Virus record (IMG/VR): IMGVR_UViG_3300034032_000013
Coordinates: 1-64,000 of that record
Source: a virus
Strand: one strand, 5' to 3'
DNA length: 64,000 nt
Positions 32,924-61,186 of the stretch are shown here, piece after piece (position 1 is the stretch's first letter; every line of letters begins with the position of its first letter). Position numbers and translations under genes: made by a program. The notes below the pieces were generated by a model that was not told the DNA's origin, searched no databases, and was given only the letters and a program-made list of their open reading frames with translations.

Positions 32924-35900
32924 ATGGCTTGTAAAAGACAAACAAAAACAAATAGTGCTGATTCAATACTATTTAATACTATTTATGAAAACTTAGCTGA
33001 CCAAAATGAATTGAAAGCTGATGAATTATATAGTTATTTTCATAGTGAAGATTTCATTGAACAATTTGGCAATTATATCCAAGATAGAACGAATGAAACT
33101 ATTCTTGATAGAGTAGATGAAAATGGTGAACCTAAACTTGATTATGATGGTATAGCTAAGAAATATTATTTTGTTGATAAAACTGGAGAGAAAATCTTTT
33201 ACCCTCTTATTAAGAGAGGGTTAAGGTCTCTCTTTGATTATAAACAAATAGAAGCTATAACATCTCAACTTGCTTTAAGCTATTTTAAGACTAATACTAA
33301 CTACGATTTTAATAATATTGATTTCGAGACTGGACAGGAACTTCCTAATCTTACTGAATTTCTTAAACAAAAAATTAAATCTAAGGTTGACGAACTTTCA
33401 CAAACAGGTGATGATAAAGATTTATTTAACTCTATGGATTTAGAGGAAAGTTTAGAACATATTGAAGAATGGAAAGATAATGTAGATGTCTTCTTTAAAA
33501 AGATAGGTCTTAAAAGAAATGATAATGTAGAGGATGAATCTTCCGAGTCTATTGAAGAAATTGAAGAAGATTCTAAAGACCCTGCATTTAATAAAGCATC
33601 ATTTGAAAGAGATACAAAAGATTCTATTTCAACTAATATGAAATTGCGTTTATCTTTACTTACAGATAATAACACAAAAGATACTATTTGGAATGAACCA
33701 CAGTTTGTTAAATTTGATGATATATATTCAACTTTACTTACTGTTTTATCAGACCAAGTTACTATAGGTAATGAAGATATATTTGAAATATATAAACAAG
33801 AGTTGGTAAGAGTGGCTTCTAAGAAACCATTTTTTGACCAACTTGTGTCATTTGTGAATGAACCATCTTTTTCTGAAAATGAAAAAAATGAATTTACTCA
33901 AGCATTTAGATTACATAAAAATAACTTTCTTGTAACTGAATTAAAAAATGATTTTGTTGAAAGTTATGATGAAAATTATCAGATTATTAAATCTGAAGTA
34001 TTTAATCACGTAGTTAAAACAGTATCTAATTCGGGTAATAGAAGTTCAAGATTAATGTCTGATTGGGGTAATAATTTTAAAGCATTATATCAAAATCAAG
34101 ATGGTAGCTTTAAGAAAGATATTTCTGAAAAAATTACTATCATTCAAAGTCAATTAGATGAACTTAATAAGTCATTTAATAATAAATCAACTACACAGGA
34201 CTTTGAATCTGCTGTAAATGAATATGTTCAGATACTTAATAAATTAGGAGTAGAAACTACTGAACTAGGATTTACGCATTATCTTGATTCAGATGGTAGA
34301 AATATTTTTAATCATCAACAACAAATAGTTAGATTAAGTTCTGCAATTGTTAATACTTTAGATGCTGTTAAAAAAATTAAAACTTGGAGTAAAAGAGAAG
34401 TTAATGAGGATAGACTTGACGATAAAGATAATAACGCTAACATATTTATTTCTACTAGACAAAATATCTTTAAACAAATTGCTAATTCTGAAGCTTTCTT
34501 TTTAGGTGAAGGTTCTGATGCTAGTATACATTCGGGTGGTAAAACTAAATGGTTATATTCATATCCATCTTATCTATCTACCAAGATACTTCAGTGGAAG
34601 AAAGATAGAAATACATTATTGGATTTGTATAACAAGTCGGCTTATAATCAAGGTTCTCATTTAATGAAATGGTTACTTGCTAAAGAATTATCTCGAATTG
34701 ATGAAGAAACTGTATCCAAAGAAAGAATTAACTCATTCGAGATGGGTATATTTTCTAACTTACAGGAAGTTGGTGGAGAATCTAAAGCTGGTAGTGAAAT
34801 TTCATTTAATGATTATTTCTTAGACCACGTTAATAAAGTTTTAACGAATGGTTATGTAAGAACTACAACTCCTGCTGATAAGAGTACAGATATTCAATTA
34901 AAAACTGGATTTTTTGAAAATTCGTTTTCTGGATTTAGTAATAATCAAATTCAACTTACAGAATCTACACAAAAGATATTCTTTGAATATTTTAATTCTG
35001 AGTTCAATAGAATGAAAGAAGCTTATAAAGAAATTCAAGCTTATAGGAATAATCCATCTAAATTAACCATTCATTACCACTTTAAAAAAGGTAGTTTTCT
35101 TTATAATGAAGATGGTTCAATTAATCCAAAAGCATTAGGTAATGCATTTAAGTCACAATACTTCCCTAATTTATCATTTGATTCAAAAACAACTAATCCA
35201 TTAGCTATTCAAATTAAGTCATTACTTTATACTAATAGTATACCTAATGAATTTGCAGGAGCTGATTTACGTAATAATCCAAAAGGTGAATTAGATGATA
35301 AAGCTGTTGGTATTAAAACATTAATACAGCAGTATATTAATATAGAATTATCTAATGGTATTATTGAAACAGGTGCAACATTTAGAGCTCAAGGTATATA
35401 TGATATAGCTGAAGATGGTAAAACTATAAATAAGTTAATTAATACCGAAACTTTTAATAAGTACGTAACTAATAAACCTTTAGCAGCTGCTTCAGATTTC
35501 TATATTAATAGTCTTATTCAAAATATTGAATATTCTAAAATGTTTACAGGTGATGTAGCATTTTATAAAGATATGATTGATTATAAGAAACGTGTACCTG
35601 CTACTTATACTGATGGTTTACAATTAAGACTTAAACCAGGTGAAGAAACTTTCAATGTTGCTACAATTAGTAGTGTTGAAATACCATCACCTTTTATGAA
35701 TGAGTTACGTGAAATGATTGGAGATGGAGCTAATGCATATTCTAACATCAACTCTGCTGATGCTCAGGCTTGGATTACTCCTAAACGTTGGAAATTTTTA
35801 GTTGAAAGATTAGGTAAATGGACTCCTGTTCATAATACTCTATATTCTAAGATGATTTCTGATGTTGCTGAACAATACACTGAAGAAGAACTTAAAATTG

Positions 35901-45634: not shown

Positions 45635-45654
45635 AATAACAAATTTAATGTTAG

Positions 45655-45726
45655 CGACCTGTATGGGACTCGAACCCATAACCTGCGGTTTTAGAGACCG
45701 CTGCTCTACCATTGAGCTAACAAGTC
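45655..45726 (-). tRNA. amber suppressor tRNA, anticodon CUA (tRNA-Trp-like body)
   Basis: Minus-strand sequence GACTTGT-TA-GCTC-AATGGTA-GAGC-A-GCGGT-CTCTAAA-ACCGC-AGGTT-ATGGG-TTCGAGT-CCCAT-ACAGGTC-G. It has a 7-bp acceptor stem, 4-bp D stem, 5-bp anticodon stem and 5-bp T stem, with a TTCGAGT T-loop. In the anticodon loop C-U-[CUA]-A-A, U33 and A37 are in place. No CCA is encoded. Confidence 0.85.
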
Positions 45727-51207: not shown

Positions 51208-52127
51208 TTATTTAATTTCACAACCATCTGGTCCACAAGCTAGATTTTCACCTAATGAAGTATTATCAGCTAGTTCAATTACTTTAGTCAAATCAACATC
51301 CTTTAATGTCAACATCATCTTTTCGTAAGTTTCTTTGCTACAATCTTCAAATGGTGTTTGTTTATATGTACCACCATCATATGGTAATACAGATAATCCA
51401 TTATAATACTCCTTATTAGCCCACATCCATTCTCCTACAATTTTCCATTCATCAGGTCGCACTGATACTGTACAAGATACATTGTGTGTATTTTGTCCTT
51501 TAACGTGACCTGTCTTAACCCAGTCACGGGAAATTAATTTAACTCTTTCAAGTAAATTCAATGTAGCTTCATGCCGTGTAATCGCTCCTTCAGGGGCTCT
51601 TTGTGGTACTGATATTACTGCTGTAGTCTTAGGACTAAAATATTCATCTTCCAGAAGCTCTGGGTGGTAGATTGATAAGTAAGAATATAATGCTTCATTC
51701 TTATTTATCCTCATTCTACGAATATAATAATCATTATGCCAAGCGTGAATACCTGAACTTGTACCTAATACGAGACTAGTAGTACCTGCTGGTTTAACAG
51801 CGGTAGTTCTAGCTGCTGAATTGATACCTAGTTCTTCTGCAAGTTGTTTATTTTGCTCAATTACAATTTTAGATGCTTCTTCATAATTTAATGCGAGGTT
51901 TGGCTCGGAAGCTATTCCCGTCATTGAAACTCCTAATAAAGCATCTTTCTCAGTATTCTTTCTCCAAATATCACGAAGATAATGAAAGTCAGTATATGAG
52001 GCTTGTAATGTTGCAATATATGATGCCGCTTGAGCACGTTCATTCAAATCAGATTGGTCTTTAATATCACCCATTCCTATCTCAACCAAATTACAAAATT
52101 GGTATGGACGGAGAGCAATTTCACAAC
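51208..52127 (-). CDS. ribonucleotide reductase, exon 2 (class II, monomeric RTPR-like)
   Basis: Begins (C)CEIALRPYQFCNL, then VKPAGTTS and LPYDGGTYKQTPFE, and ends with a C-terminal CGPDGC redox pair. No start codon precedes the conserved CEI...FCNL segment; TGA lies at 52129-52131. Confidence 0.7.
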
Positions 52128-53023
52128 CTCACACTGTAGAGTTACATCAATAATATCTACTCGTGCGCTGGACTATCGCATACGATATGTCTCCAAGTTT
52201 TATCTTTTCTAATAAAATCAATTACATAATTTTTGACATTATATATATCTGCAATTTCATTATTTGATAATCCTTCTTTTATTAGTTTACATTTAATACA
52301 TTTTACCTGTTCTTCATTTAATAACGCTTTACCATTATTTGAACCAACAGATACATTTTTGTATGAATATTTATTAGCTACTCTTGATTGTTTAGCTCTT
52401 TCAGAACGTTTATATTTAGAATCTTTTAATTTTATACCTTCTTTAGTTTTAATTGAAGTATTAATAGAATGTTTTTCCTTATTTTCAGATATTTCGTACC
52501 ATTCTTTTTCAACTCCCAAATTACCACCTTTCTGTGAATTCCAACCAATATTTTGTTTATATCGTAATTGTCCTTCAATCATTAAAGCATCTTTTAATGA
52601 TAGATTATCATAAAGAATTAAAATTTCTAAATTATTCCATCCATATTTTTTTATTGCATTAGTAAGATGTGTTTTCTTCTTATTTTTTTTATGAGATTTA
52701 ATTCTTTCTTCATAATTAGAAGTTAAGCCAATATAACCTTGACTTATTTCATCACCTTTTTGTATAGTATGTTCTAATAAATGTATCCAGTAGATACAAT
52801 ACACATCGTCTCCCTCGCTTAGTCTCTCAGGCTGCACAGAAAATACTTCTTTAATAATTAAAGTAATTTCTTGCTTGCCCCCTGTCGCTGTATTGTCAGC
52901 TTCCAAGTCAATCAGAGGGAGTTTTAAATCCGCATTATGTGTCTTCATAAATAATAATATTTGTTATACAAATATAAGAAATTTTTATAATAATTCCTAA
53001 TTATTTTGAAACTTTTTTAGTTT
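52128..53023 (-). mobile_element. group I intron (896 nt) with internal GIY-YIG homing endonuclease ORF
   Basis: P1: exon AAUCCGU (53030-53024) pairs with GCGGAUU (52933-52927), with a U.G pair at the splice site. P10: exon 2 GUUGUG (52127-52122) pairs with CAUAAU (52939-52934). An R-like element GAGAGACUAAG (about 52817-52830) and an S-like element GAUAGUCC (52170-52177) give P7 GACUA/UAGUC. The intron ends in G (52128). The spliced frame is continuous (1863 nt). Confidence 0.75.
52157..52948 (-). CDS. GIY-YIG homing endonuclease (intron-encoded)
   Basis: Shows VYCIYWI ... GYIGLTSN ... R..SH ... E spacing typical of GIY-YIG. It has a C-terminal helix-turn-helix-like tail (LSNNEIADIYNVKNYVIDFI). 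The ORF ends in TAG. Confidence 0.8.
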   Translation of the reverse strand: MKTHNADLKLPLIDLEADNTATGGKQEITLIIKEVFSVQPERLSEGDDVYCIYWIHLLEHTIQKGDEISQGYIGLTSNYEERIKSHKKNKKKTHLTNAIKKYGWNNLEILILYDNLSLKDALMIEGQLRYKQNIGWNSQKGGNLGVEKEWYEISENKEKHSINTSIKTKEGIKLKDSKYKRSERAKQSRVANKYSYKNVSVGSNNGKALLNEEQVKCIKCKLIKEGLSNNEIADIYNVKNYVIDFIRKDKTWRHIVCDSPAHE

Positions 53024-53966
53024 ACGGATTAGTTCCCCAATCTTTATCATTGGTTAAATAAATCCCTGGTTCACCCGAACCTGATGCTTCAATACGTTCC
53101 CAAACTTTATCAAAAGTTTTCTTGTCAATCTTATGTCTTAATAATACAACAGAGTTATTAGACCTTCCTAACTCAGGCATAATTTCCCACCAATTACCTG
53201 CTTTACAATTTAACATAGCATCGCTATCTAAATCAAATAAACAAATCATTGCTGCTCTACGTATACCACCTGCTAATACTGCATCTGCAATAAAACATTG
53301 TATTCTATGACATTCAATATCAGTAAGTTTACTACCATTTTCTTTTTCACGAAGAATAGCTTCAATTTTCACTAAAGCAATCCTAAGTGGTTCAGGTCCT
53401 GGAGCCTTACCACCAGCTGTAACTAATGCAGCACCTTTTGGTCGAATATCTGATAAATCAAATTCAACATGAGAATTCATACTACCTGTATAAGTTTTCA
53501 TCAACACTTTAATGGCATCAGCCCAGCCTATAATAGAATCCTGAACAACATATCGTTTAGTTCTATTAGAAGAAGGTTTTCTTATCTCTGGTAGTTTATC
53601 TATGTGATGATTCTGGACAGAATATCCCACACCCGTACCACCCAATAATAGAAACATAGTCTCAGAGAAACTATGTATGCTATCAACTGGTAAAAACGCA
53701 CAATTATATATTCTTGCATTGTTTAATTCGATTGCTCGACCTCCGAATTGAAGGGAGCGCATAGAAGGTAATACCTTCTTGGTAAATACATATTCTTGAT
53801 AAATTTTTTCAATATTTTGTTGCAGTTTTGGATATTTTTTAATATGCATCTCCATATTTCTCTTCACAAGTTCGTCCCAAGTTTCCCTCCTTTCTAATTC
53901 GGGCTTAAACTTAGCATACTTACTGTGAACAGTTATGTCTGATAATATCTTTTTATCTACTTCCAA
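53024..53966 (-). CDS. ribonucleotide reductase, exon 1
   Basis: The N-terminal part has VLPSMRSLQFGG and GGTGVGYS and ends ...DWGTNP. This is the first half of the NxCxE active-site loop. TTG is the only available start (53966). Confidence 0.7.
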
Positions 53967-56711: not shown

Positions 56712-57406
56712 TCTATTAATTCTTTATGGTAATGATGAACATACTTATCTAAATCATAAAATATTCTTGAGTCTTTTGGTAAAACAATTTCGTCGTTTGA
56801 AAAGATTTTATGTTTCTTTTCATCTATAAATTGCTTATAATAATTACAAGTATTATCAAGAAATACAAAAGCAATATTTTGATGTGTAAGATTAATATGT
56901 TTTATCACAAACCTTGTGAAATGAGCCCAACATTTATGGTGAGAATTATGAAATTCTGATGTTAGACTCGTATTTAACATTAAACAACCTTGTTCCGCCC
57001 AACTTTCTAAAGTATAATCAAATGTTTTCTTATTATCCTGATACTTATAAGTAGTATTTTCAACACACGTTTTAATGTTATTAAGAGCAGGTGGTATCAT
57101 TATAGTATCTTCTGCTACTCCATATGCCAGTCCATTAGACTTCAAATTAGAATAAGGTTGTTTACCTATAAATATTACCTTTAATTCATCATATTTACAC
57201 ATACGAAATGCCCTGAATACATCATCTTTATCACAAGGATAAATCTGTTCAGGAGATGCATATTTTTGATTTATAAACCACGCTAAATTATCCATATAAC
57301 GTTGAATTATAATCTGTATCAAAGGTTGTGCCCAAGTACCTAGTTCATCGCTGTAATTAACCTTTAAACCAGTCTTATCTATTGGATTGATGTGTTCTAC
57401 TACCAT
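56705..57406 (-). CDS. degenerate UDG-fold protein (catalytic residues lost)
   Basis: Collinear with family-1 UDG: IGKQPY (vs GQDPY, Asp to Gln), NGLAYGV, PPALNNI, MLNTSLT, NSHHKCWAHFT, FVFLDNT. It lacks the C-terminal HPSP-type His motif. TAATG overlap with the amidoligase gene. Ends in TAG. Confidence 0.6.
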   Translation of the reverse strand: MVVEHINPIDKTGLKVNYSDELGTWAQPLIQIIIQRYMDNLAWFINQKYASPEQIYPCDKDDVFRAFRMCKYDELKVIFIGKQPYSNLKSNGLAYGVAEDTIMIPPALNNIKTCVENTTYKYQDNKKTFDYTLESWAEQGCLMLNTSLTSEFHNSHHKCWAHFTRFVIKHINLTHQNIAFVFLDNTCNYYKQFIDEKKHKIFSNDEIVLPKDSRIFYDLDKYVHHYHKELIEW

Positions 57407-59256
57407 TATACCATTTCCTCATTAGATTCTTTAATAGGGTCAACAAATTCTAAATCTTGTTTGATAGCATTTGCTTTCGATTGATTATGTAAATGTAACA
57501 TAGCATCATCAAGCATTTGTTTTGATAAATTTACATATGATTTAGAATTTGAATAAGTAGAATTATATATCATATTTTTATGTGCACCTTCATCCATTTT
57601 ATCTGTCCAAACTTTTGTTACAAGTTCTACTTCGGCAATTGGATTAATAGTTATAGGCGCAGATATATAATCATCTTCCTGCATAGATACTTTAGGAGCA
57701 GATTGTTTTGCACGTTTTATCTCTTTTAAATTTATAGGAATATGAATATCCCTTTTATTAAAATCAAGATATTTTGAAACACGAATATGCTCCTCTTTAC
57801 CGATAATATCTCCTCTACAATTATTAGATTCAGTCACCTGTTTCCTAACACTTAAATAGTCATCCATACACATAATTATACTATCTCTATTGGATACATT
57901 GGAAGTATTTAAATACTCTGTAATAATACGACGTAAATCTTTACCATATAAAAAATTCTTGTTTTCAAGAATATTTTTCTGATACTTTTTAGTAAAGTTA
58001 ACCAAGATTGCTGACATTAATATAAATGGAACAATTTTATTTACCTCATAAGTTGGAGTATGTATTCTAAATTCAACAGTTGTTTTGTTACCAAATATCA
58101 ACGGAATTAAATTATGAATGTAATACCTTGTATGAATATTCCACTTTTGATTGTTATTTGGGTCAGAAGGGTGAACTTTTACTTTATCTAAATCATTATT
58201 ATATGCAGCAAAAGGTTGTCCTTGTGATAAATATTCAAATAAAACATTAAAGTTTTCATTAATATTTTCACGAGTAATTATAGCATCCATTCTACTTAAT
58301 AAATCAAATATAGGATATGGTTTAGAATAATTTTTATTCTTAACTTTAAAATTATATTTTTTATATAAAGGAAACATTTGATACATATCATCTTGTACAA
58401 GACAAGTTAATTTAAAAAATGCAAGAATGAATTCTTTTGTTCTAGGAACATTTCCAATATGTAAGTGTAAAGAACAAGTATTATCATAAACAGTTCGTTC
58501 CTTTAAAGGTTCCAACATATCGACTACTGTTTGTAACCCTTTTTCTCCTGAAAGTGGTATAGTTACATATTCTATACCACTTATACTTCCATCTCGTAAA
58601 GGTATTAATCCCACTTTGTTCAAAATTCTATCAGGAATAAATCCTCTAGTAGTTTCAAACTCCAAACCAAAAGATACATCTTCTAAAATTGGAGCATAGG
58701 TTTTAACAACATTACTTATTCTACTTTCATAAAATTTATTATACTTCTCTGTAAAAGCATCAGTAATCCCTCTTGAGTCATAAGGTAGAGATGTTTTATA
58801 CTCTTGTGAAGGTATAATTATTTTATTAAAAGCATTTGCAGGCAATCTTTTAATGTGATAGTATATACCTGATGATAGTTCTTCACGATATTCTCTATTA
58901 TTTTCCAACAATTTCTCGTCTAAAATATAATAGTGTTCACCATTTTCTAAACCTATTTCAGCTTTACCTTCCGCATCAAAATGCCCAAAAATAGGTTGAT
59001 TATTTTCAAAACCAACAATACCATTTACTAGGTTATTTTTATTCATTGTATATTCTTTTGTACTGTGGTTAAAAACGATATTACCAGTTTCGGCTCGATA
59101 ACAACTTTTATTAATAATGTAACAATCTCCTGAATTCTCTTCATTGGTATTACCTATTTTGTAATATCCTGTTGGAAATTTTCTACATTGTGATATTGGT
59201 AATTTCTCGCCTTTAATAGTAATTACTTCTTTTTGCTTACTCATTTTCTTTTTCAT
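57406..59256 (-). CDS. amidoligase (glutamine-synthetase-fold COOH-NH2 ligase, Amidoligase_2-like)
   Basis: 616 aa. Core: FGLEFETTRG ... DGSISGIEYVTIPLSG ... CSLHLHIGN. Confidence 0.65.
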   Translation of the reverse strand: MKKKMSKQKEVITIKGEKLPISQCRKFPTGYYKIGNTNEENSGDCYIINKSCYRAETGNIVFNHSTKEYTMNKNNLVNGIVGFENNQPIFGHFDAEGKAEIGLENGEHYYILDEKLLENNREYREELSSGIYYHIKRLPANAFNKIIIPSQEYKTSLPYDSRGITDAFTEKYNKFYESRISNVVKTYAPILEDVSFGLEFETTRGFIPDRILNKVGLIPLRDGSISGIEYVTIPLSGEKGLQTVVDMLEPLKERTVYDNTCSLHLHIGNVPRTKEFILAFFKLTCLVQDDMYQMFPLYKKYNFKVKNKNYSKPYPIFDLLSRMDAIITRENINENFNVLFEYLSQGQPFAAYNNDLDKVKVHPSDPNNNQKWNIHTRYYIHNLIPLIFGNKTTVEFRIHTPTYEVNKIVPFILMSAILVNFTKKYQKNILENKNFLYGKDLRRIITEYLNTSNVSNRDSIIMCMDDYLSVRKQVTESNNCRGDIIGKEEHIRVSKYLDFNKRDIHIPINLKEIKRAKQSAPKVSMQEDDYISAPITINPIAEVELVTKVWTDKMDEGAHKNMIYNSTYSNSKSYVNLSKQMLDDAMLHLHNQSKANAIKQDLEFVDPIKESNEEMV

Positions 59257-61186
59257 TTGACACTATGAATGTGCTTAAAATTCCGTTAATGTTATCTATT
59301 GTTTTGATAAATTCTTTTGCTATAGAATTTGGCAGATAACCTTCAAGATTTTTCTTAGTTTGATTTAAACTTACAATTGGTTCAGTCAATTCTTCATTAA
59401 TTAAGTTACTAACGATTTCGTCTTCTTCTTTACCTTTCATTTCTAAGTCATCACCAGTATAATCATCTTTAAAATCTTCTTGGTCTTCTTCAACCTTTTT
59501 CATAAAAATAGCATCTGATTGTTCCATAATAGCTGCTGTTTGAGCCTCTTCGTGAGCAAATAAACTTTTCTCTACTCCTTCAAGTACATCTTTTTTAAAA
59601 GGTACGATAGCAACATCTTTAACATCTTCTTTTTTAGACATTGAAATAGGAAGTTGAATAACATCTTTAACAGGGTTTTTAACATCTAATTGAATGTCAA
59701 CACGAGTTCTCATATTTACTAAATTACCCTTACTAAATTCATATACTCTTTCAGAACCTAACGGACAGATATTACCTGTATATAACTTACCATCAAAGTA
59801 AACCTTTTGGTCAGTCATAGGTTCCATTGTCATAGGTGGTACAGGATGTTTAGCTACAATAGATAAATCAATATGATTAAGATACTTTTGATTTTTGTCT
59901 AAAGTTGCTAATCTTTGTTTCATTACATTATAATCATAAACAGTTCTGAGCATTACACCTTGTATAAAATAACAAAGCATTGGTACCTGATGTAATTTAA
60001 ATGGTATAAAATCTGTTGCAGGTTCTACTGTACGATTTCTATGAAATTCTCCATTGATAAATGGTACTCCTGTATATGATTTAATATCTTTTAAAGCCTC
60101 ATCTCTAGTTTGACCCATAGAATGAAAACCGTAACCAGGAATATAAACATATACACCCGTAATAACGTGCCCATTCCTTTTGTATCTTCCTTGATTATAA
60201 TAGGGTTTTCCTTGTCGTAATGGAAGTGGGATGAAGAGGTCTTCTGTGTGAATGTTAACGGTTGATGACATTCCTGAAGTTCTTCTACTGGGATATACCT
60301 CACTAATATCAGATGTCTTAGTACCATAAGTTACAGTATTATGTCTGATATTATTAACATTTATAGGTGATGTATAAGATACATTTTTACTAACATAAGG
60401 TACATTCTGCCAAGTATTTCTTCTACTTACTAAAAGTTTAGTGGCATTTTTAAAATCACCATCTGTTATACAATATACTGTATTATTATCAATTTGAAAA
60501 GCTTGTGTTTCATCAGCTCCTAAAGCATAAAGACTTTCTATCATTGAAGAAAAGAATGTTGAATTTTTACTTCTTTGATATACGCATAAGGGTCTTTCAA
60601 TAGTCATATTAATACTCGTGTCCCAATCTTTTGAAGCACCTGAAAATAGATAAATCTTATTAGGTTCTTCTAACCAAGTCCAAGCTAAAGCTGCACCACC
60701 GATGTATTTACTTAGTACTGTATAATTTTTTTCTTTATACATAATTTCCAGTAATATTTCACTATCTATTTTCTTACGAACATATTTAATGTTATTACTG
60801 AAATATTCTTCTTCAATATCGATATTGTACATTTTAGCAAGCTCTTCATAATTTTTAAGAGTACCATTATGGCAACCAATAAATTCATAGTTACCATTAT
60901 CTAAAGCACCGAAACCAAAAGGATGAGCGTTAAAAGCATTTATTGCACCTACACTAGATTGTCTTGTATGACCAAATATAGTAGGTACACTCTTCGGCTT
61001 AATGTGCCGCTTTTTTATAAAATCACTATATAGCTTATCTTTATCAAGACCTAAATATATTTCACCATCATATGTTAATCCGCAAGAGCTTTTACCTCTT
61101 TCGATATTAAATAGACCTAATATATTCATTTCACCAACTGATAAGCTATTTACATTTTTTGTTACGTGTCCAAAAATTCCGCACAT
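59237..61186 (-). CDS. class II (Ntn) glutamine amidotransferase domain protein with long C-terminal extension
   Basis: The N-terminus MCGIFG (Cys2 nucleophile) is followed by ERGKSSCG, GHTRQSS, AHPF and CHNGTLKNY, as in PurF/AsnB/GlmS GAT-II domains. About 400 aa of unknown sequence and an acidic tail follow. Confidence 0.7.
   Translation of the reverse strand: MCGIFGHVTKNVNSLSVGEMNILGLFNIERGKSSCGLTYDGEIYLGLDKDKLYSDFIKKRHIKPKSVPTIFGHTRQSSVGAINAFNAHPFGFGALDNGNYEFIGCHNGTLKNYEELAKMYNIDIEEEYFSNNIKYVRKKIDSEILLEIMYKEKNYTVLSKYIGGAALAWTWLEEPNKIYLFSGASKDWDTSINMTIERPLCVYQRSKNSTFFSSMIESLYALGADETQAFQIDNNTVYCITDGDFKNATKLLVSRRNTWQNVPYVSKNVSYTSPINVNNIRHNTVTYGTKTSDISEVYPSRRTSGMSSTVNIHTEDLFIPLPLRQGKPYYNQGRYKRNGHVITGVYVYIPGYGFHSMGQTRDEALKDIKSYTGVPFINGEFHRNRTVEPATDFIPFKLHQVPMLCYFIQGVMLRTVYDYNVMKQRLATLDKNQKYLNHIDLSIVAKHPVPPMTMEPMTDQKVYFDGKLYTGNICPLGSERVYEFSKGNLVNMRTRVDIQLDVKNPVKDVIQLPISMSKKEDVKDVAIVPFKKDVLEGVEKSLFAHEEAQTAAIMEQSDAIFMKKVEEDQEDFKDDYTGDDLEMKGKEEDEIVSNLINEELTEPIVSLNQTKKNLEGYLPNSIAKEFIKTIDNINGILSTFIVSNEKENE

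Follow-up and report, generated by a model that had tools for sequence, protein, structure and literature searches.

The region described here lies on the minus strand of a 64,000-nucleotide (nt) stretch of viral DNA (positions 1 to 64,000 of IMG/VR record IMGVR_UViG_3300034032_000013; hereafter the window), where a ribonucleotide reductase (RNR) gene is broken within its active-site motif by an 896-nt insert which itself carries an endonuclease gene. Unless stated otherwise, all features given below are on this strand. The first part of the RNR gene, exon 1 (53024..53966), was recognised from the list of open reading frames (ORFs), from Pfam and from homologues; it begins with TTG and consists of 314 codons plus a U, the first base of a cysteine codon. 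Its reading frame ends ...D W G T N P (ACT AAT CCG) and then runs directly into T(53024)AA, an in-frame TAA. The missing continuation is found approximately 0.9 kb further on, where GTG TGA GGT TGT GAA ATT reads V * G C E I A L R P Y Q F C N L, with an in-frame TGA close by and no start codon in the sequence upstream. When T53024 is joined to G52127 the junction becomes CCG U|GU UGU GAA (P C C E) and, because GGU precedes UGU GAA, this is the sole junction yielding Cys-Cys-Glu. Exon 2 (51208..52127) begins with GU UGU GAA and ends with TAA, and the insert occupies 52128..53023, boundaries which rest on the junction, on the comparison of related introns and on RNA folding. The predicted ligated sequence is AAUCCGU|GUUGUGAA, and the spliced coding sequence (CDS) of 943 + 920 = 1863 nt encodes 620 amino acids (aa) plus a stop, reading DWGTNPCCEIALRPYQFC across the junction. 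The exon ends in U and the last base of the insert is G52128.

The best 120 of the thousands of homologues found with the spliced protein were used for comparison, all of them uninterrupted, 619–631 aa long and 80–88% identical. The peptide at the junction was TNPCCEI in 119 and TNPCVEI in one, with the residue count unchanged, and DWGTNPCCEIALRPYQFC or a close variant was present in 119 of the 120. One of these homologues (P0006) is encoded on a 93-kb intron-less phage contig (L387) with a syntenic set of genes, namely dUTPase, RNR, helicase, UDG and Thy1. Its RNR gene is 1863 nt in length, is 79.6% identical to the spliced CDS of the window without a single gap, and reads AATCCAT|GTTGTGAA at the insertion site. 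The closest solved structure was that of the monomeric, B12-dependent reductase RTPR of L. leichmannii (1L1L, E = 4.3e-38), in which GTNPCGEISL aligned with GTNPCCEIAL of the window, placing C408 opposite the first cysteine. As C408 is taken here to be the thiyl-radical cysteine of that enzyme, the proposal that the codon of the radical cysteine is split as U|GU and assembled by splicing appears to be right. Exon 1 also matched the Pfam class II insertion domain (RNR-II_ins_dom, 28.2 bits with a cut-off of 27) as well as RNR_Alpha. With its barrel, N-x-C-x-E loop and B12 insertion domain, the host gene has the predicted features of a monomeric class II-type RNR, use of the cofactor likewise being predicted.

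The gene structure just described had been put forward in the initial annotation, including the stop directly after TNP, the startless continuation behind a TGA, the T53024/G52127 junction with its product of 1863 nt and 620 aa, the exon-terminal U and intron-terminal G, and the split radical-cysteine codon. On recomputation from the window sequence all of its coordinates were correct, and the comparison with intron-less homologues which it had proposed as a check agreed with it, both in the equal residue count and in the gap-free gene of the syntenic contig. The observation in the sequence is confirmed and is more than chance.

The insert was found to contain the helices of a group I ribozyme in the order P3-P4-P5-P5'-P4'-P6-P6'-P7-P3'-P8-P8'-P7'-P9, with the P3/P7 pseudoknot. 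P1 is formed between the last seven bases of exon 1, AAUCCGU (53024..53030), and the internal guide sequence GCGGAUU (52927..52933), with pairing at all seven positions and U53024 at the 5' splice site in a terminal U.G pair. Directly 5' of the guide, CAUAAU (52934..52939) can pair at six of six positions, two of them G.U, with GUUGUG of exon 2 (52122-52127) to form P10. The rest of the P1 loop is an AT-rich insertion (L1, 52940..53023) with three small hairpins and a TATATTTG box at 52969-52976. P3 is made up of CUCCCUC (52915..52921) and GAGGGAG (52810..52816), the 3' strand being placed by the family alignment described below. It is followed by J3/4 (UGAUUGA) and by P4 (CUUG 52904-52907 / CAGG 52881-52884), which encloses J4/5 (GAA), P5 (GCUG 52897-52900 / CAGC 52887-52890, loop ACAAUA) and J5/4 (GA) within 52881..52907. 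A different P4, made of GCUG and a downstream UGCAGC, was dropped in favour of this arrangement, as GCUG co-varies with the nearby CAGC and not with the distal element. P6 (GGGC/GCCU), P6a (GCA/UGC) and P6b (AGAA/UUCU) occupy 52829..52880 together with a variable loop whose length differs among relatives.

The 5' strand of P7, G(A)GACUA with a bulged A (R element, 52820..52826), leads through J7/3 (AGC) into P3' and the 5' strand of P8, ACGAUGUGU (52801..52809), within which lies an in-frame GUG at 52804. P8 is completed by ACAUAUCGU (52182-52190) and encloses the body of the endonuclease ORF. J8/7 (AUGCGA) and the 3' strand of P7, UAGUCC (S element), follow at 52170..52181, then P9 (CGCAC/GUGUG) with P9a (GUAGA/UCUAC) at 52130..52167, and lastly AG before the splice site, with the terminal G (omega-G) at 52128. 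R and S elements have the consensus ..AGACUA and ..AUAGUC, and these were used together with the printed consensus of the Rfam model RF00028 to judge the guanosine site. The R-like GAGAGACUAAG (52828-52818) and the S-like GAUAGUCC (52177-52170) were located, UGAGAGACUAAG and AUGCGAUAGUCC were both present, and the resulting P7, G(A)GACUA/UAGUCC with its bulged A, is invariant in the family. P2 is absent, only UAAAA linking P1 to P3, and P7.1 and P7.2 are likewise absent, only AGC lying between P7 and P3'; the intron is therefore not of the IA2 type usual in phages.

No part of the window was recognised by RF00028, which could mean that no ribozyme is present, and relatives were therefore gathered for a direct test of the RNA structure. 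They were obtained from the contigs of endonuclease ORF homologues, from a metagenome scan with the ORF alignment and from a scan with a conserved core motif. All contigs of ORF homologues that were looked up had the three-part arrangement of the window, the metagenome scan gave 23 further close loci as well as two loci (L097 and L098) considered below, and the core-motif scan added a member from one genome and others on viral contigs. The core pattern, TTGACTTGGA..ACARGG, has many chance matches in large collections and its hits were kept only where R and S elements accompanied it. A scan of IMG/VR with the endonuclease protein returned distant GIY-YIG relatives only, a comparison of the locus DNA with cultured phages gave three weak partial matches only, and no second copy of the intron family was found in the window. 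The family comprises approximately 35 introns in the NP|C codon of at least four RNR lineages and ranges from 170 nt without an ORF up to 896 nt, with several ORF-less members of 170–190 nt. The usual site across the family is after the first base of the cysteine codon in ...N-P-C..., and the host RNRs are very diverse (GTNP|CCEIALRPYQFCN, GTNP|CSEIILRPYQFCN, TTNP|CGEIFMQP and GVNP|CAEEPLP..GSCLLGSINL).

An alignment of 32 distinct related introns, from which the interiors of L1 and L8 had been removed by hand, was used to count base pairing. Standard pairs were formed in 91.8% of 2014 cells, a value which fell to 34–47% when the 3' partners were slid by 1–3 columns. Double changes, with both sides of a pair altered, were seen in 46 of 64 pairs, and the observed measures were reached by none of 500 shuffles. 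These changes were spread over P1 (5/7 pairs), P3 (6/7), P5 (4/4), P6/P6a (4/6), P8 (9/9), P9 (8/10) and P10 (5/6); P3, P6/P6a and P7 were paired in 100% of cells. P4 is near-invariant, with three of its four pairs constant and one varying on one side, and is uninformative, while P7 has five invariant pairs and one that switches between A-U and G-C. The terminal U.G of P1 was present in all 32 introns, the base ahead of the frame-defined exon 2 was G in each of the 35 introns whose 3' junction was mapped, and P1 was found to co-vary with the exon (AAUCCGU/GCGGAUU, AAUCCCU/GGGGAUU and AAUCCAU/GUGGAUU). RNAalifold, run unaided, recovered P1, P3, P4, P5, P6, P8 and part of P9. The minimum free energy fold of the trimmed ribozyme of the window alone contained the same helices (z = -4.84; none of 200 shuffles folded as well), and P1 still formed in a fold with the full 90-nt L1 present. 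The initial annotation had derived a 7-bp P1 ending in U.G, a 6-bp P10 directly 5' of the guide and a P7 from R-like and S-like elements from the window sequence; each of these pairings held, as did its appeal to the group I splice-site rules.

Within the insert, a 263-aa ORF (52157..52948; ATG at 52948, TAG at 52157-52159) is assigned to the GIY-YIG homing endonucleases, the domain covering approximately 52529-52807. The ORF has 128 homologues, the Pfam GIY-YIG domain (PF01541) was detected in 25 of 25 aligned family members (best E = 7e-9), the PHROG assignment is 'homing endonuclease', and the catalytic residues Y50/Y53, Y72-x-G74, R82, H86, E125 and N137 are invariant. A profile of the endonuclease family found no match among PDB sequences, and no Hint, reverse-transcriptase or maturase domain was found in the ORF with Pfam. 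The initial annotation did not describe the overlap between this ORF and the ribozyme, in which the first 47 codons coincide with the guide sequence, P3, P4, P5, P6, P7 and P3', and the last 11 or so with P8', J8/7, P7' and P9. The ORF of compact relatives (L082–L086 and L179) is confined to L8, with its AUG within the 5' strand of P8 and its end ahead of J8/7, and the extension of the ORF can therefore be dated within the family. Judging from this comparison, the ORF of the window clade is extended at both ends, from an ATG in L1 to a stop in P9. The N-terminal extension is the best-conserved part of the protein (ADLKLPLIDLE..TGGKQ..QPERLSE), and its variable positions track RNA pairing, not amino-acid conservation (e.g. 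GCU..GCG to GUU..ACG). The J3/4-P4 core reads in frame as L-I-D-L-E in 109 of 120 homologues, and the P6 loop occurs in seven lengths, all multiples of 3. That the frame is open through the core in so many homologues suggests that the extension is translated, presumably from the ATG at 52948. GAGGGAG (P3') is a possible Shine-Dalgarno sequence for the internal GUG, although hosts of the Bacteroidota generally do not use such sites.

The L1 loop, which is 9–22 nt long in the compact relatives, is AT-rich and 42–91 nt long in the window clade. Its TATATTTG box lies 20 nt before the ATG at 52948 and fits TAnnTTTG, which we take to be the −7 box of Bacteroidota promoters. This motif was found 18–40 nt upstream of ORF starts for 8 of 51 ORFs in comparison with 2.05 ± 1.44 expected, an excess of approximately four-fold. 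The endonuclease is probably driven by its own Bacteroidota-type promoter within the P1 loop, and it is plausible that a transcript of its own begins in L1. Such a transcript would be without the 5' exon and therefore could not splice.

The sole tRNA gene of the window (45654-45726, minus strand) has a CUA anticodon and is an amber suppressor, reported as tRNA-Pyl by ARAGORN and scoring 72.5 bits with the Rfam tRNA model. The endonuclease stop is TAG, and read-through would add five residues; exon 1 ends in TAA and amber suppression therefore cannot bridge the intron. Suppressor tRNAs and TAG recoding in late genes are known from crAss-like phages (PMC7886860).

Several members of the family differ from the window copy. 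In two of them (L080 and L081) the intron is inserted 3 nt downstream (UGC U|CG GAA), with the U.G and the terminal G kept and with re-adapted guides, GGCAAGG and GACAAGG (pairing, for example, CCUUGCU/GGCAAGG). A reading of these loci as frameshifted pseudogenes was rejected, the two being insertions 3 nt downstream with matching guides. In L081, exon 2 has a stop soon past the motif, and a further insertion or some decay may follow. At L097 and L098 (1490-1720) most of the endonuclease gene is lost, leaving a 223-nt intron with its core kept, and the P8 stem consists of the leftover ends of the ORF (first codons AUG UAC UGU G, last codons GKNWSHI); these loci are a decay stage of the homing cycle. 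A 173-nt ORF-less member is present in the cultured marine Roseobacter phage CRP-118 (OR420741.1, approximately 35056-35228 of the record; L388 2492-2664). It occupies the same NP|C codon (FGTNP|CSEIILRPYQFCNL) between two CDSs, gp44 and gp45, both labelled 'ribonucleotide reductase', and it is unannotated; the word 'intron' does not occur in the genome paper.

A sister family, termed B, shares the common core CUGAUUGACUUGGAA / ACARGGSGCAAG, has its own UGAACGACUAAGUG and GCGAUAGUCUGAAC elements and possesses a P2 hairpin. Its members are approximately 200 nt in length, ORF-less and present in two to three copies per contig, with one copy splitting a P22-type coat protein gene; they were located on viral contigs (L149, L159, L168, L175, L176, L185, L186, L222 and L224) and in MW202674.1 (L389 2000-2140). 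RF00028 did not match this family either. As a tentative proposal, held with rather low confidence, the family of the window (family A) and family B may together form a compact, undescribed and unmodelled class of group I introns. Its features would be a P4 of 4 bp, an invariant CUGAUUGACUUGGAA, no P7.1/7.2 and, in family A, no P2; such introns would be widespread among gut and aquatic phages and would escape current annotation. The window clade would add to this a fully overlapping ribozyme and endonuclease with its own P1-loop promoter, two transcripts arising from one segment of DNA, one a splicing-competent pre-mRNA and the other a non-splicing endonuclease mRNA.

Taken together, the insert is very probably a group I intron, bounded exactly as given above, and the reading given in the initial annotation is supported in nearly every detail. 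A number of points weigh against it. The check by RF00028 search which the initial annotation had proposed was the only one that did not support it, with no match over the whole window at the gathering score, in 51900-53250 at E ≤ 10, in 12 related loci at E ≤ 1 or, for ORF-less relatives, in three loci at E ≤ 10. The structure model was partly derived from the sequences on which it was counted, in a hand-trimmed alignment, and it is for this reason that RNAalifold and the single-sequence fold matter as independent checks. The weakest of the helices is P10, which pairs in 78.6% of cells; covariation lends no support to P4 or to the greater part of P7, as these are invariant, a point which is in itself neutral. 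The endonuclease of the window scores 20.8 bits, slightly below the Pfam cut-off of 22.6, and TAnnTTTG is not enriched over the whole window (95 found, 105 expected). An ORF translated through the core might hinder folding, as might the 90-nt P1 loop, and the window copy could splice poorly. Splicing at the RNA level, guanosine addition and endonuclease activity are all deduced from sequence.

With regard to the Rfam result, the search itself was working, as it detected a different group I intron in the RNR gene of L088 and in that of L075, in each case further upstream. In L088 this second intron lies at 931-1216 (76 bits) and in L075, where it has an insert of approximately 700 nt, at 48-244 and 946-976 (40 + 22 bits); RNR genes of these phages can carry several intron types. 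The diversity of group I introns is such that no single model captures all of them (PMC6125680), the RF00028 seed is without whole subgroups, and existing models may miss phage variants (PMC11878797). Because the literature describes RF00028 as incomplete, the negative is taken to reflect a shortcoming of the model and is outweighed by the comparative evidence. Such a model, moreover, serves to detect group I introns and does not define them.

The absence of an RF00028 match would also suit a fractured RNR gene, in which a free-standing endonuclease gene has landed and the two halves are translated apart and reassemble without splicing. Three separate ORFs are called in all related contigs, two RNR CDSs are given by GenBank for CRP-118, and split RNRs of this kind are documented, such as NrdA-a/NrdA-b of Aeromonas phage Aeh1 (PMC3045599). 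However, exon 1 would then stop at NP, and no start codon precedes CEIALRPYQFCN in the second half, where translation could begin no earlier than at TTG 52089. This codon is past both active-site cysteines, and split halves therefore could not encode the thiyl-radical cysteine. In addition, ORF-less relatives of 170–190 nt break the same codon, and some 60 base pairs are kept by compensatory change, which is unexpected for a protein-only element. A fractured gene is considered extremely unlikely. A group I intron which has decayed, with splicing lost or very poor and the RNR reduced to a pseudogene, is likewise very unlikely. The unusually long P1 loop (90 nt) and the passage of the ORF through the core could be read in this way, homing-endonuclease elements do cycle through decay, and the endonuclease gene is deleted in L097. 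Yet the exons are intact, without stop or frameshift and 80–88% identical to uninterrupted homologues, the window copy has all family-invariant positions with every helix fully paired, and the long-L1, long-ORF design recurs in no fewer than four independent contigs whose exon sequences differ.

The active-site regions of RNRs are classic intein sites. Both inteins and group II introns are documented in RNR genes (PMC3653736). The TAA directly after exon 1 and the different frame of the endonuclease ORF exclude an in-frame intein, the domains expected of an intein or group II intron (Hint, reverse transcriptase, maturase) are missing from the ORF, no Rfam group II match was found, and the helices are of group I type. 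These two possibilities are already refuted by the sequence and retain practically no probability.

For the group I intron, we infer the following course of events. In the pre-mRNA, the guide GCGGAUU would pair with the last seven exon bases AAUCCGU to form P1 with U.G at the cleavage site, and the core would fold as P3-P4-P5-P6 and P7-P3-P8-P9. P7 would bind an external guanosine, which would attack after U53024; the terminal G52128 would next occupy the guanosine pocket while P10 aligns exon 2, and the exons would be joined as ...AAU CCG UGU UGU GAA..., giving one RNR of 620 aa with the N-x-C-x-E site restored. By analogy with I-TevI, I-BmoI and I-BthII, the GIY-YIG enzyme may cut intron-less RNR alleles near their NPC codons during co-infection, upon which repair of the cut allele would copy the intron in. 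Intron-less alleles exist (L387), and the predicted cleavage substrate is therefore known. The L1-initiated transcript lacking the 5' exon would supply the endonuclease.

The window is part of a 104-kb contig. The phage to which it belongs is crAss-like, its capsid protein sharing 62% identity with the one from Cellulophaga phage phi14:2 and 47–49% with those of gut crAss-like phages, with matches for the portal protein too, and its host is probably a flavobacterium. The RNR gene is preceded by a dUTPase gene (54420-53989) and followed by a helicase gene, both on the minus strand. Elsewhere in the window, four very large ORFs of 1349, 1518, 2188 and 1824 aa stand in a row on the plus strand (20258-44964), an arrangement consistent with the giant RNA polymerase and virion proteins known from crAss-like phages. 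Two adjacent ORFs on the minus strand (57406-61186) were assigned to the PHROGs 'amidoligase' (616 aa, E = 9e-30) and a glutamine amidotransferase type (649 aa); this pair may be a nucleotide- or DNA-modification module beside the replication genes.

These introns have consequences for annotation, as gene calling breaks the RNR gene up into two or three unrelated ORFs in this abundant crAss-like group and in CRP-118, and the gene seems to lack its active-site cysteine as long as the intron goes unnoticed. RNR is a widely used marker for the virioplankton, and unrecognised introns at its most conserved motif therefore distort surveys. For RNA biology, a very small group I core (170 nt) is represented by over 30 natural variants, which make up a ready covariation data set, expose a gap in Rfam coverage and offer a clear case of bases shared by a ribozyme and an endonuclease gene. 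With regard to mobile elements, the family occupies one codon across RNR classes and has two copies shifted by 3 nt with re-adapted guides; a short guide and a universal peptide motif therefore appear to allow spread between unrelated genes. CRP-118 is a ready experimental system.

The initial annotation had described RNR genes as classic phage intron targets, and this stands, RNR being the phage gene most often broken by group I introns (PMC3653736). It had known of none described in a crAss-like or flavobacterial phage, which does not hold in so far as some crAss-like phages are reported to have a high density of group I introns in the genes for the major capsid protein, PolB, primase and other proteins (PMC7886860). 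Mobile elements of this kind are therefore classic and well known. No published account was found of this family, of its radical-cysteine-codon site across RNR classes or of its structure at the nucleotide level, the intron sites of Twort nrdE and of the Nostoc RNR not having been compared. The introns of Delta and Zeta crAss-like phages resemble that of the window in their crAss-like host, their endonuclease genes and their location in core replication and structural genes. They differ in having been recognised by protein domains, and in the accessible text RNR is not among the listed genes and neither RNA structures nor junctions are given (PMC7886860).

Known RNR introns of phages include those of T4 nrdB (I-TevIII) and nrdD (I-TevII), Twort nrdE, SPbeta bnrdE and bnrdF, and nrdE and nrdF of the Bacillus cereus group with the GIY-YIG enzyme I-BthII (PMC2248736). 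As in the window, these have a group I core in a conserved RNR stretch near a functional residue, an endonuclease gene looped out from a peripheral helix and close relatives with intron-less alleles. The window differs from them in its predicted monomeric class II-type RNR, in its crAss-like phage and in a compact core without P2, P7.1 or P7.2, and its family differs in being RF00028-negative and in occupying one codon across very different RNR classes. The T4 td intron and I-TevI share with the window an N-terminal GIY-YIG domain and a C-terminal region which is probably DNA-binding, and share with its family an ancestral ORF whose start codon lies within a helix of the ribozyme (P8 in this case), a position that could limit translation from the folded RNA. 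In the window, however, the ORF lies in P8 instead of P6, the ORF of its clade spans the entire core, and none of the solved GIY-YIG structures is detectably similar in sequence to the endonuclease. Endonuclease ORFs overlapping a group I core are a known arrangement (PMC3984707, Fig. 2b), in which, as here, the ORF leaves its loop for ribozyme helices, whose bases thus both pair in the RNA and encode protein. The window differs from these introns in the extreme extent of the overlap, which runs from 5' of the guide through P3–P7 and P3', and then through P8', J8/7 and P7' into P9.

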